Source: a virus. From it: a stretch of DNA of 11,233 bases. Each line of letters begins with the position of its first letter. The stretch's first letter is position 1. The notes under the pieces were generated by a model, which was not told the DNA's origin, did not search any database, and worked only from the letters and a program-made list of their open reading frames with translations. The stretch is from UHGV virus genome UHGV-0151101. One strand, given 5' to 3'. Positions 6,025-9,728 of the stretch are shown here, in pieces. Position numbers and translations under genes: made by a program.

Positions 6025-7401
6025 TCATACGTCAGCCCCTTGTGCATATCGTCTGCCACGCGCAGCAGGTGCATTTGATGTTGTGCAAATCTGTCTGGCT
6101 TCATCCTGGTCACATGCAACAAAGTGTCCGTTGCAGAACCGCTGGTAAACCGTACCAAGCGAGCCAAAACGGTTTTTCGTCACAATGATTTCAGCAAATG
6201 GCGCGGCGCTACTGTTCTCGTCATATACCGCCTCCCGATAGAGCATGATGATTGAGTCTGCGTCCTGTTCAATGCTTCCTGAATCACGCAAATCTGCGTT
6301 TGTCGGGCGTTTATTTGGTCGCTTCTCAACATCGCGCGAAAGCTGACTCAGGGAGATTACTGGCGTTTTCAGGTCTTTCGCCATCGCCTTCAGGCTTCCG
6401 GAGATGTGAGCAATTGCGAGGTCGTTGCGATCTGCTTTCGGCTTCTCAATCAGGCCAAGATAATCCGCCATGATGAGTGAGAGGTTTGGATTTTCCTGTT
6501 TGTGCCGTTCTGCGATTGAGCGTATTTCTTCGACCGATAACCGCGAGGCATCGACCACCCATACATCCAAATCTGCAAGCTGACTCATTCCGTTAGCAAC
6601 ACGTGCCCAGCCCTCGTCATCCATCGATGCAGGATTTCGCAGTACGCTAACCGACATCCTCCCGGCGTTGGCAATGCTTCGCTCTGCGATCTGCAATGCG
6701 CTCATTTCCATCGAGAAAATCAACACTCCGCGCCGGACGTCAGAACCAGGAATAACGCGGCTTGCAACGCCTTCGGCAATCTTCAGCGCCAGTTCGGTTT
6801 TCCCCATACCAGGACGAGCAGCGATTATCACCAGGTCTTCCGCGTTCATCCCTCCGGTGATGGCATCAAGTTCTTCGATTCCGGTCTTCAGGGTATCTGA
6901 CTCTTCTCCGTTCCTCAGACGCCTGTCAAGCGTGTCAGTGTAGTCGGTGATGATTTCCCCTAACCGTACCGGTTTAACCTCGTCACGTGGCTTTCTGATG
7001 GCTGAAAGACGCTTTACAAGTTCATCCATCGCCTGACTCGATGCGTCGATGGTTCCGCTCTGAATTGGTTCACGCATTTCATCCATGATTTCCAGCACCA
7101 GACGGCGGTGATAGTTATCCGCGACCATTCCGGCATATCCCTTCAGGTTTGCGGCACTCGGGCAGTTTTTGCTGGTCATCAGGATTGACGTGAAATGCTC
7201 CTCTCCGCACGCCTCGGCAACCATCAGCGCGTCGATTAGGTTTCTGTTTCTCGCCTGCTTGCGGATAACCTCGAAGGCTTTCCGGTAGAGCGGAATTGAA
7301 AACGCTTCCGGCTCCAGCGTTGCCAGAACGTCACTGGCAGTTGGTGTTAATCCACCAATCAGCAAGCCACCGATAACGCTCGCTTCGATATCCTGTCTCA
7401 T
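6025..7401 (-). CDS. Replicative DNA helicase, DnaB family, 458 aa
   Basis: Walker [16 protein letters not shown] and helicase motifs ([15 protein letters not shown]). Resembles the phage-encoded DnaB-type helicase of P22 (gene 12) by recall. Start overlaps the O-like stop. Confidence 0.9.
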
Positions 7402-8219
7402 GCAATCCCCCTGTCTGCAAACTTCCCTTCCCGTACTCCCGTTAACGAATCTTCCCTCAGCAGGTAATCAAAATCTGCCGTCCAGCCAGTGTCGTTGTCT
7501 CCGAAGTAAAACGGCTTGGCCTGATGCACAAACGCCCTGACATACGCTCTGAAACCGTCCACGTTTGGCGTTTTCAGTTGCGGGATGATTTTCTTCAGGC
7601 GGCGTTTGCGTTTCTCGTTGACCGCAACAGCGTGTGGCAGTCTGTCACCGACTTCGGTGTTGTAGGCGTTCAGGAAGGATTCATAGTCGATTCGTTCTGC
7701 CTTGCGACGTTCAGGTTTAACCTGCCCATCGCCGCCCCCGTTAGGGGGTAAGGGGGTATTTGTATTTATTGTCTTTTGTATATTGTCTTTTGTGTTTAGC
7801 TGACTTGGCTTATACCCATTAGCCGACTTGGCTAATGTTTTATTAGCTGTTTTAGCTAATGTTAAGCTGTCCTGGCTAATCCACTGAGAAACCACCTTGT
7901 TCACTCCGATTTTCACGCCATCAGCAATGAGGAATTTACGCTCGATAAGCTGGCGCTTGGCAGCGCAAACATGAGTGTGATGAATACCTGTCATGGCTGC
8001 TATCTGCGTGTTTGTGAGTCGATCCATCGGCTTATTGAATCCGTATGTCTTGCGCATGATAGCGAGCATCACCTTCAACTGCCGGACGGTTAAATCAGCC
8101 ATCAGCAGACTGTCGGTAATCTCGTTAGCAACGCGCATGAAACCATCTTCGGTATCTGCCACGCGATGCTCCACGACCTCCAGTTGAGGCCTGTAATCAG
8201 CTAACTTAACGACGCCCAT
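7398..8219 (-). CDS. Replication initiator, lambda O-like, 273 aa, with the origin inside the gene
   Basis: Position after cII. N-terminal DNA-binding region, central low-complexity linker ([47 protein letters not shown]) encoded by iteron DNA, C-terminal domain. GGAG lies 7 nt upstream of the start. Confidence 0.85.
7756..7880. repeat. Replication origin: four ~19-bp iterons plus an adjacent AT-rich tract
   Basis: Iterons at about 7796-7814, 7819-7837, 7843-7861 and 7862-7880 (TTAGCTGACTTGGCT, TTAGCCGACTTGGCTAATG, TTAGCTGTTTTAGCTAATG, TTAAGCTGTCCTGGCTAAT). AT-rich 7757-7795 holds a 12-bp direct repeat ATTGTCTTTTGT at 7768-7779 and 7782-7793. Same layout as lambda ori inside O. Confidence 0.65.
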
Positions 8220-8367
8220 GTTTCACTCCTGCTTTGGCTAGTCTGTAAACACCAACAAGGCGCTCTGCGAACGCCCTGTTATTTGCTGCGGCTACCACTA
8301 ATCCCTCAGGTGAATCAGGGTGTCGAATCTCTTCTTTTTCCTGGTATTTCTTACGACGTTTTGTCAT
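8206..8367 (-). CDS. Possible small basic protein, 53 aa, between cII and the O-like gene
   Basis: Hand translation [57 protein letters not shown] 5 nt upstream of the ATG; 3' end overlaps the O-like start by 14 nt. No homolog recognised. Confidence 0.3.
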   Translation of the reverse strand: MTKRRKKYQEKEEIRHPDSPEGLVVAAANNRAFAERLVGVYRLAKAGVKHGRR

Positions 8368-8376
8368 AATTACTCC

Positions 8377-8452
8377 TGTGGATTGATCCAGTAATTCCCT
8401 CAGAATTGCATATCAATTTGCTTAAAATCCTCGGTGGCGGCCGGGGATTTTT
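8377..8452 (+). ncRNA. Candidate oop-like antisense RNA covering the cII 3' end
   Basis: CATAAT -10-like hexamer at 8365-8370. Weak A/T-rich stem AAAATCC / GGATTTT (8424-8430 and 8445-8451) then a T-run, antisense to the cII codons for KKSPAATED, the same relative position as lambda oop. Predicted length about 76 nt. Confidence 0.35.
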
Positions 8453-8696
8453 TCTTTGTGATTTCATCAAGCGCATACTTAAAAGCCCTGCTAATCGGAC
8501 TGATGTCTGATGCCATTCCGAAAGCACACAAGACCGAAGCAATAAATCTCCAGTCCGTTCTGCTTATCTTCGATTCATGACAGCCAATCATCTTTGCCAG
8601 ACCGCGCTGGGTAAGCGTTGACAGGTTGATGAGTAAATCAGTTTCAGCGCGATCAATTTCTCGCTGTGTTGGCTTGCTGTAGCTTGCTTGTGCCAT
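8400..8696 (-). CDS. cII: cII-family lysogeny activator, 98 aa
   Basis: SKISRTDWRFIASVLCAFGM and C-terminal KKKSPAATEDFKQIDMQF parallel lambda cII (SQISRWKRDWIPKFSMLLAVLEWG, KKRPAATERSEQIQMEF as recalled). Located between cro and the O-like gene. Confidence 0.85.
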   Translation of the reverse strand: MAQASYSKPTQREIDRAETDLLINLSTLTQRGLAKMIGCHESKISRTDWRFIASVLCAFGMASDISPISRAFKYALDEITKKKSPAATEDFKQIDMQF

Positions 8697-8811: not shown

Positions 8812-8997
8812 TTATGCCGCTTGGCGGTAAGCACTTTCTTGATACTTCAGGGCGCCAGCTGTAACGATTTCCAATCGATAGGCGTCTTTCTCTGGGATAA
8901 CTTCTTTCCACTGAGAGACTGCTGCATCGCTAATGCCTAGTGCTTTAGCAACAGCACGCTGGGTTCCGAAGTGGTCAATAACATCTTTTTTGTACAT
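8812..8997 (-). CDS. cro: Cro repressor, 61 aa, P22 Cro type
   Basis: MYKKDVIDHFGTQRAVAKALGISDAAVSQWKEVIPEKDAYRLEIVTAGALKYQ... matches P22 Cro as recalled. GGAG 7 nt upstream of the start. Confidence 0.9.
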   Translation of the reverse strand: MYKKDVIDHFGTQRAVAKALGISDAAVSQWKEVIPEKDAYRLEIVTAGALKYQESAYRQAA

Positions 8998-9077
8998 AGA
9001 CTCGCTCCGAAATTAAAGAACACTTAAATTATTCACCAAAGGAATCTTAAGTCAAGTTTATTTAAGATGTCTTAACT
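8998..9077. promoter_or_regulatory. Right operator region with divergent PR (- strand, cro) and PRM (+ strand, repressor)
   Basis: 18-bp palindromic operators ATTAAAGAACACTTAAAT (9012-9029) and ATTTAAGATGTCTTAACT (9060-9077), plus a weaker CTTAAG-containing site near 9045-9062. PR on the - strand is TTGACT-N17-ATAATT. The repressor ATG at 9078 directly abuts an operator. Confidence 0.75.
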
Positions 9078-9728
9078 ATGAATACACAACTGATGGGTGA
9101 GCGTATTCGCGCTCGCAGAAAAGAACTCAAGATTAGGCAGGCTGCCCTTGGCAAGATGGTTGGCGTGTCTAATGTTGCTATTTCCCAATGGGAGCGATCT
9201 GAAACTGAGCCCAATGGCGAAAACCTATTGGCCTTAGCCAAGGCTTTGCAGTGCTCCCCTGATTACCTGTTGAAAGGAGAGGATAGTCTTTCAAACATTG
9301 CCTATCACAGCAGGCATGATCCAAGAGGTTCGTATCCTCTAATTAGTTGGGTAAGCGCAGGATGTTGGATGGAAGCTGTAGAGCCATATCATAGGCGTGC
9401 AATAGATAACTGGTACGACACAACGGTAGATTGTTCTGAAGACTCTTTTTGGCTCGACGTTAAAGGCGATTCAATGACTGCCCCGGCAGGACTGAGTATT
9501 CCTGAGGGGATGATTATTCTCGTCGACCCAGAAGTCGAACCACGTAATGGAAAGCTGGTAGTCGCCAAACTTGAAGGAGAAAACGAGGCGACATTCAAAA
9601 AGTTAGTTATTGATGCCGGTAGAAAATTCCTGAAACCACTCAATCCACAATACCCAATGATTGAAATCAATGGGAACTGTAAAATCATTGGCGTTGTCGT
9701 TGATGCCAAGCTAGCAAACCTTCCTTAA
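9078..9728 (+). CDS. c2: Prophage repressor, 216 aa, P22 c2 type (cI family, LexA-like autocleavage domain)
   Basis: MNTQLMGERIRARRKELKIRQAALGKMVGVSNVAISQWERSETEPNGENLLALAKALQCSPDYLLKG... and the C-terminal peptidase-like domain (GDSM...K) match P22 c2 as recalled. Confidence 0.95.
   Translation: MNTQLMGERIRARRKELKIRQAALGKMVGVSNVAISQWERSETEPNGENLLALAKALQCSPDYLLKGEDSLSNIAYHSRHDPRGSYPLISWVSAGCWMEAVEPYHRRAIDNWYDTTVDCSEDSFWLDVKGDSMTAPAGLSIPEGMIILVDPEVEPRNGKLVVAKLEGENEATFKKLVIDAGRKFLKPLNPQYPMIEINGNCKIIGVVVDAKLANLP

Follow-up and report, generated by a model that had tools for sequence, protein, structure and literature searches.

An oop RNA homologue and the small gene gp53 between cII and the replication initiator gene of a lambdoid virus

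Virus genome UHGV-0151101, an 11,233-nucleotide (nt) stretch of DNA called the window here, carries a lambdoid early-right operon in reversed orientation, such that rightward (pR) transcription runs along the - strand, as judged from the map of open reading frames (ORFs) and from Pfam matches. Our subject is the interval between cII and the gene for an O-like replication initiator. A first-pass annotation had described this interval as expanded to about 180 bp, compared with about 30 bp in lambda, and as holding two candidate elements: a basic 53-amino-acid (aa) ORF on the - strand and an oop-like antisense RNA on the + strand. The gap is exactly 180 bp long (8220-8399), versus 32 bp in lambda (cII end at 38653, O start at 38686). 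The expansion is therefore real, but it is not a novelty, and corresponds to a known alternative gene arrangement treated in parts of Hayes et al. 2012 (PMC3349717).

The observation of the two elements is confirmed and its interpretation supported, and both elements have been recorded before: GenBank entries of near-identical phages annotate the oop homologue as well as the 53-aa ORF (gp53 in phage HK97). Between 8150 and 8500 the window is 99.7% identical to the Shiga toxin (Stx) phages Nil2, 1717, YYZ-2008, and 2851, and 98.9% identical to HK97. The portions of Hayes et al. 2012 (PMC3349717) that concern this region describe exactly this layout as “cII-oop-orf-O-P,” with Nil2 included. They also report that 23 lambdoid phages, which include Nil2 and HK97, have a conserved oop/pO segment of 33 bp, and treat lambda as naturally lacking the ORF and HK97 gp53 homologues as an alternative occupant of the slot. 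Those portions do not report a helicase-versus-loader association, a selection analysis, or the hairpins given below. What we add by inference is a rule linking small ORFs to phage helicases, the sharing of a promoter by the first 11 codons of gp53 and of its counterpart orf48, and a conserved hairpin within each of these two genes, located some 35 nt ahead of the initiator start. Overall, the locus is very likely explained as a standard lambdoid pO/oop cassette with one extra gene between the cassette and the initiator gene, and the identity of the individual parts, as read from the sequence, appears nearly certain.

The oop RNA homologue and its promoter

The main features of the interval are as follows.
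8378-8454, + strand: oop antisense RNA homologue of about 75-77 nt, identified by base-for-base alignment with lambda oop, HK97, and HK629
8424-8453, + strand: oop intrinsic terminator, with a GC core (8428-8435) pairing with 8440-8447, a GGCG loop, and a T-run at 8448-8453
8335-8370, + strand: pO promoter, with the -10 hexamer CATAAT at 8365-8370, the TG of an extended -10 at 8362-8363, and a -35-region block TTTTTCCTGGTA at 8335-8346
8206-8367, - strand: gp53, the 53-aa ORF (phrog_1331, E 1.4e-37)
8253-8281, - strand: predicted 13-bp hairpin in the sense of the mRNA, spanning gp53 codons 29-38 and ending 33 nt upstream of the initiator ATG
8400-8696, - strand: cII (Pfam Phage_CII PF05269, E 2.7e-33; phrog_191)

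When + strand positions 8330-8470 are aligned with the lambda l-strand, the match is ungapped over the whole RNA, and the 5' end and the terminator core are invariant. The elements that match lambda are the extended -10 TGTCATAAT, the discriminator ACTCCTGT, the RNA 5' end G(U/G)GAU(A/U)GAUCCAGUAAU, and the terminator core CUCGG...CCGGG, which is followed by a U-run. The first-pass annotation had estimated an antisense transcript of about 76 nt. With its start set at G8378 by homology with the 5' G of lambda oop and its end at the end of the T-run, the predicted RNA measures 75-77 nt, and the candidate is in addition a sequence homologue of lambda oop. The stem and T-run that had been placed in the 3' end of cII likewise stand, as a 12-pair hairpin (8424-8451) with a T-run at 8448-8453. 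The predicted fold of the RNA has a free energy of -30.4 kcal/mol (z = -5.3 versus shuffled sequences).

The likeness to lambda oop extends to the position antisense to the last 55 nt of cII (8400-8454), an overlap given for lambda in the relevant part of Hayes et al. 2012 (PMC3349717), to a length of about 77 nt, to the type of terminator, and to a nearly identical 5' end (GUGGAUUGAUCCAGUAAU against GUUGAUAGAUCCAGUAAU). The two RNAs differ in the register of the first stem, which is GGAUUGAU/AUCAAUUU here and GAUCCAG/CUGGAUU in lambda, and at two compensated pairs of the terminator stem.

As bare patterns, such features are not above chance (2 terminator-like sites versus 1.3 expected), and it is homology and conservation that raise the oop and promoter features above it. 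The layout is kept in all 31 distinct lambda-type oop variants, and the RNA 5' end is conserved in every one. Across 19 distinct lambda-type variants, 98% of the cells in the terminator stem are paired, versus 36-62% in slid controls, and two of its pairs show compensatory double changes (CG/UA and GC/CG). Phages with a P22 c1-type cII have the same promoter and 5' end, a shorter RNA body, and a different but again compensated terminator. The P22 record annotates an oop promoter and terminator, and the HK629 record notes a feature “similar to coliphage lambda oop RNA.” Moreover, OOP has been detected by transcriptomics in the P22-like prophage BTP1 (PMC7067206), which has the same junction as the window but carries orf48 in place of gp53. 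The supplements of that paper contain no OOP coordinates. A search of the window against Rfam at the gathering threshold returned no match, with the presence of an oop model in Rfam not established.

In lambda, oop pairs with the 3' end of cII and lowers CII via RNase III (PMC12197685), an effect known from lambda only (Krinke and Wulff, as cited in a passage of PMC7067206). By analogy, a lambda-like mechanism is probable here as well. The RNA would pair with the cII 3' end and lower CII via RNase III, while firing of pO would oppose convergent pR transcription, and together these effects would bias the phage toward lytic growth. The interference documented in lambda is only that between pO and convergent pR transcription (PMC3985674).

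The -10-like CATAAT that had been noted on the + strand lies at 8365-8370 with TGT ahead of it, which makes it an extended -10. It had also been noted that this hexamer coincides with the start codon of the small ORF, such that the two elements might interfere with each other. The coincidence is real, in that the CAT of CATAAT is the complement of the gp53 ATG, but lambda has it too: there the ATG of O lies under the identical TGTCATAAT. The overlap of -10 and start codon is thus the ancestral arrangement and no peculiarity of this phage. Furthermore, gp53 uses the ribosome-binding site, the ATG, and the second codon that serve O in lambda, so that the first 11 gp53 codons double as pO.

Upstream of the -10, the promoter departs from that of lambda, whose -35 is TTGAGT; the CCTGGTA block found here is typical of phages bearing gp53 or orf48. 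The -35-region block coincides with gp53 codons 8-11 (TACCAGGAAAAA; TTTTTCCTGGTA on the + strand) and is nearly invariant at the nucleotide level. The third-position entropy of these codons is 0-0.41 bits versus 1.35 bits in the middle of the ORF, and the block is separated from the -10-like hexamer by 18 nt in all divergent loci examined. The promoter DNA ATGACAAAAC-N11-TACCAGGAMAAA is common to gp53 and the unrelated orf48. A lambda/P22 hybrid described in part of Hayes et al. (PMC3349717) has a hybrid pO composed of the lambda -10 and the P22 -35.

The small gene gp53

The first-pass annotation had called the 53-aa ORF basic, with a good ribosome-binding site and a start-proximal overlap with the O-like gene, and each of these properties is borne out. 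The ORF (8206-8367, -) encodes a product with a net charge of about +8, is preceded by a GGAG Shine-Dalgarno sequence (8376-8373) 5 nt ahead of its ATG (8367-8365), and overlaps the initiator gene by 14 nt. The predicted protein is 100% identical to HK97 gp53 and to the Sf6 gene 42 product, and it matches phrog_1331 from end to end (residues 1-53 versus profile positions 1-53 of 53, E 1.4e-37), a family whose members include HK97 gp53, Sf6 gene 42, ES18 gp58, and epsilon34 gene 49. The window thus shares with the HK97 gp53 family the same 53-aa protein, the same slot between cII and the initiator gene, and an overlap of the same 14 nt; what varies between phages is confined to the neighbouring cro, cI, and cII alleles.

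Conservation of the reading frame had been proposed as a check on this ORF, and the frame is conserved. The comparison covered 12 homologues divergent at the nucleotide level, taken from phages of Erwinia, Cronobacter, and Enterobacter, from ES18, and from prophages of, among others, Serratia, Rahnella, and Citrobacter. Nei-Gojobori ratios of nonsynonymous to synonymous substitution (dN/dS) are 0.06-0.33, with dS of about 1-2. Codon periodicity is evident in the middle of the gene, where entropy is 1.35 bits at the third codon position versus 0.32 at the first two positions, and every insertion or deletion seen among the Erwinia, Serratia, Rahnella, Cronobacter, Citrobacter, and Enterobacter homologues is a multiple of three. 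Given the low dN/dS while mid-ORF synonymous sites are saturated, the amino-acid sequence of gp53 itself is under selection. On these sequence comparisons we regard gp53 as a real gene under purifying selection. Toward either end of the gene, synonymous sites vary less (0.64 bits for codons 1-12 and 0.91 bits at the C terminus), and the C-terminal codons hold the AGGAG and ATG of the initiator gene. All gp53 homologues of identifiable source are from Enterobacterales. We considered whether gp53 could be a split-off N terminus of O and rejected this idea: the initiator aligns with lambda O from about residue 17 and has an N-terminal tag of its own.

The hairpin within gp53 is specific to the mRNA-sense strand because it contains G-U pairs. 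In 11 of 12 homologues, its stability exceeds that of synonymously recoded versions (z of -3.9 in the window, mean z of -2.1), and seven of its pairs show double changes. At one covarying pair, the combinations CG (4), GC (4), UG (3), and GU (2) join position 1 of codon 32 (Ala/Pro/Ser) to position 3 of the Arg36 codon. The three most divergent members retain the ORF but lack the hairpin. A hairpin of different sequence, CAGCCUGG-UCGAUU-CCGGGCUG, is located in orf48 at a similar distance from the initiator start, with z of -1.7 to -4.5 in six of six sequences. Intrinsic termination was considered for these internal hairpins and rejected. The gp53 homologues have no conserved U-tract on either strand, and since neither the gp53 hairpin nor the orf48 hairpin is accompanied by one, they are not terminators.

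Replication modules and the occupants of the slot

Downstream of gp53 lie the following features.
7398-8219, - strand: O-like replication initiator gene, P22 gp18 / HK97 O type (Pfam Phage_rep_O PF04492)
7798-7880, inside the initiator gene: four 16-nt iterons (AGCYGNNYTRGCTWAT) spaced 20-24 nt apart, found by repeat search
6025-7401, - strand: gene for a DnaB-like replicative helicase (Pfam DnaB_C, E 9.5e-78, and DnaB)

The helicase gene occupies the place that P holds in lambda. The module has the composition of the P22-type gp18-gp12 modules, namely an initiator gene of the Phage_rep_O family that contains iterons, with a DnaB-like helicase gene after it, and similarities to P22 gp18 and to DnaB are noted in the HK97 record. 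It does not have the composition of a lambda O-P module, as the gene after the initiator matches DnaB_C and DnaB and is neither lambda P nor a DnaC/IstB-like loader. The iterons are the presumed origin, and analogous rep_origin features are annotated in P22, Sf6, and ES18. Ahead of the iterons, a short direct repeat, ATTGTCTTTTGT, is present in two copies at about 7768-7795. The distance from pO to the iterons exceeds that of lambda by about 140-150 nt. In lambda, where the pO-ori distance is critical, a displacement of pO by a mere 6-10 bp with respect to ori cripples the replication of plasmids (PMC3985674). The pO-to-ori geometry of helicase-type modules must therefore differ from that of lambda.

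The initiator ATG (8219-8217) and its Shine-Dalgarno sequence AGGAG (8230-8226) both lie inside gp53. The 14-nt overlap is invariant among 88 gp53 loci (86 of the 86 in which it was counted). Initiators found after gp53 belong to five families: the HK97/P22 gp18 type, the Sf6 gp43/HK022 type, the lambda-O type (ES18), a 386-aa type, and an HTH_36/DnaD_N type, the last of which comes from a further divergent locus (L222) outside the 88. The initiators of the 88 loci have a 10-residue N-terminal tag, or a close variant of it, in common, and at least three types of cII are located upstream of gp53. Because several initiator families share the tag and at least three cII types precede it, gp53 and the first ten initiator codons form a separate mosaic unit. 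In 70 of the 88 loci, gp53 has one identical nucleotide sequence although its neighbours differ.

The ES18 initiator (L007, 1649-2497) is a three-part mosaic composed of the gp53-linked tag, a lambda-O origin-binding domain (94% identity to lambda O over residues 17-155), and a C-terminal domain unlike that of lambda, and it is followed by a primase-helicase gene. Since ES18, the most informative locus, pairs gp53 with the origin-binding domain of lambda O and yet encodes a primase-helicase, gp53 goes with the helicase partner rather than with the origin-binding domain.

P22, HK022, and BTP1 carry a 48-aa ORF, orf48 (Pfam DUF2740, PF10872), in the slot of gp53. The two genes are alike in their slot, their similar size, their overlap with the initiator start, their conserved mRNA hairpins, and their occurrence only with phage-encoded helicases. 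They also have the same start, MTK/MPK....YQ[ED]K, which is encoded by the pO promoter. They differ in the length of the initiator overlap (8 nt for orf48 and 14 nt for gp53) and in the sequence of the hairpin. Homology between them was rejected: hhalign gives a probability of 1% and aligns only residues 1-11, and the ORF of the window has no match to Pfam DUF2740. The “orf48” of accessory-gene screens is a matter of unrelated numbering. In the RefSeq records, orf48 is unannotated in HK022 (L218, 3391-3537) and BTP1 (L220, 3067-3213), and in P22 (L009, 2350-2496) it carries the label “tail protein,” apparently an annotation error.

A census of the slot was made with two sets of 120 viral contigs, which were fetched by the oop-body motif alone (lambda-cII type and P22-c1 type). 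The gene after the initiator was classed by tblastn, with labels confirmed by Pfam, and about 190 loci could be classified, as follows.
gp53 in the slot: DnaB-like helicase, 64; Toprim primase-helicase, 5; lambda P, 0; IstB/DnaC-like loader, 0
orf48 in the slot: DnaB-like helicase, 37; Toprim primase-helicase, 17; lambda P, 0; IstB/DnaC-like loader, 0
Small ORF absent: DnaB-like helicase, 0; Toprim primase-helicase, 0; lambda P, 57; IstB/DnaC-like loader, 8

These counts suggest that a small ORF occupies the slot only when the module encodes its own helicase, and that modules encoding a loader for host DnaB (lambda P or an IstB/DnaC-like protein) have none. The rule also holds in ten divergent gp53 loci and in nine loci fetched by the exact protein (19 of 19). 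The sole apparent exception, L328, carries a third small ORF of 86 aa (MRKNTEMHKEVKRNRF...) ahead of a 306-aa initiator and a DnaB-like helicase. This ORF, which is unrelated to gp53 and orf48, is also the first after the oop junction in L308, a locus too short to include the downstream genes. Two long loci that could not be classified, L281 and L285, are rearranged or disrupted. In L151 and related loci, the 968-aa Toprim primase-helicase carries an intein-like insert (Hint and LAGLIDADG) beside the nucleotide-binding motif.

Possible roles of gp53 and alternative explanations

One possibility is that gp53 is a small accessory protein for replication modules that have their own helicase, although we hold a replication-accessory role to be a tentative proposal that may well prove wrong. 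In such a scheme, gp53 would be translated from the pR message at the ribosome-binding site that lambda uses for O, and the initiator would be translationally coupled to it. The protein may then help to recruit or load the phage helicase, a step performed for host DnaB by lambda P or a DnaC-like protein. A broader proposal, which we consider somewhat less probable still, is that all the slot ORFs (gp53, orf48/DUF2740, and the 86-aa ORF) are tied to phage helicases, either as miniature recruitment or loading factors or as hairpin-linked cis devices that set initiator synthesis.

The helicase rule and the paired hairpins offer modest new clues to what gp53 and orf48 do. These two genes are present in hundreds of Shiga-toxin, P22-like, and HK97-like phages. 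The rule bears on helicase loading in P22-type phages, for which we know of no identified helicase loader. If the proposal is true, the small ORFs would be an unrecognised third component of the P22-type initiator-helicase module, with a role analogous to that of lambda P. Toxin production by Stx phages is driven by their replication, which would give an unrecognised replication factor some practical interest.

Several points weigh against parts of this reading. The gp53-type locus is known from sequence alone, and 53 residues is very small for a helicase loader. To our knowledge, P22 genetics has named only genes 18 and 12 as replication genes. Searches with gp53 of Pfam, NCBIfam, PADLOC, and a PDB sequence profile gave no match and no homologue of known function. 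An exhaustive profile search of 1.8 billion representative proteins yielded only 28 gp53 clusters, all of them small enterobacterial proteins, after two long low-complexity matches were disregarded. The AlphaFold2 model, which predicts a disordered basic N terminus and helices at residues 20-29 and 31-46, is of low confidence (predicted local distance difference test score of 68). Literature searches for “HK97 gp53” and “DUF2740” found nothing relevant. With regard to the census, the loci are related, the two sets partly overlap, and kinship was uncorrected, and the perfect association therefore overstates the number of independent events. The association could reflect blocks that were inherited together, and three unrelated ORFs in one slot also fit a hot spot for accessory genes. 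As for the promoter, the pO -35 is CTGGTA, with an 18-nt spacer and only two or three of six matches to the consensus, and a consensus promoter scan of the region did not call pO because this -35 is poor.

These last features could be taken to indicate that oop is an inactive relic here, whose lambda-type -35 was lost when gp53 was inserted, leaving pO silent and the hairpin as merely a bidirectional or structural element at the end of cII. The lack of an Rfam match could be read in the same way. We find this very improbable. The extended -10 TGTCATAAT is identical to that of lambda, the -35-region block stays fixed at the synonymous sites of divergent gp53 genes and recurs in orf48, the RNA 5' end is conserved in every variant, and the terminator stems keep their pairing through compensatory changes. 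Moreover, OOP is transcribed in BTP1 (PMC7067206), whose -35 is of the P22/orf48 type, and the hybrid promoter treated in part of PMC3349717 joins the lambda -10 to a P22 -35. A different question is whether gp53 acts mainly in cis, such that passage of the ribosome opens the hairpin and feeds the initiator start, the length of the gene sets the distance between pO and the origin, and the peptide has little or no function. The invariant 14-nt overlap (86 of 86 loci), the initiator Shine-Dalgarno sequence inside gp53, and the conserved hairpin 33 nt upstream of the initiator ATG, with its counterpart at a similar distance in orf48, would all fit such a role. So would the similar displacement of the initiator start by the two ORFs (148 and 139 nt) and the critical pO-ori distance in lambda (PMC3985674). 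However, dN/dS over the whole ORF is about 0.1 while mid-ORF synonymous sites are saturated, and residues are invariant across genera, unlike those of a mere spacer. In addition, the three most divergent members have no hairpin yet retain the ORF, the PDSPDGL motif, and the genomic context. A predominantly cis-acting role is therefore improbable in our estimation.

It is slightly less improbable, but still unlikely, that gp53 is an accessory gene with a function outside replication (e.g. host takeover, counter-defence, or phage exclusion) that resides in a recombination hot spot and whose link to helicases is simply inherited linkage. At least three unrelated small ORFs can occupy the slot, which is empty in other loci and adjoins the 33-bp conserved oop/pO junction, annotated as boundary sequence bsq5 in Sf6. 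The gene is small, taxonomically narrow, and without known homologues, and its single nucleotide sequence in 70 of 88 loci beside different neighbours is what would be expected of a recently spreading cassette. Nevertheless, gp53 has neither its own promoter nor its own terminator and forms part of the replication operon, where reading frames overlap, and PADLOC returned no match for it. The helicase rule is without exception in about 190 classifiable loci even though the partners of gp53 include initiators of at least four types, cII genes of at least three, and helicases of two, and in ES18 the link holds across an exchanged origin-binding domain.

Two further genes, identified from the ORF map and from Pfam and PHROG scans, lie beyond cII.
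8812-8997, - strand: Cro, P22-type
9078-9728, + strand: C2/CI-like repressor

The best sigma-70-like site of the region, TTGACT-16-AATAAT (9028-9055, -), is located between the repressor and cro genes and is presumably pR. A terminator-like hairpin was also called within the cII coding sequence (8531-8556, -); it has a poor U-tract and falls within the chance expectation of 1.3 per region.

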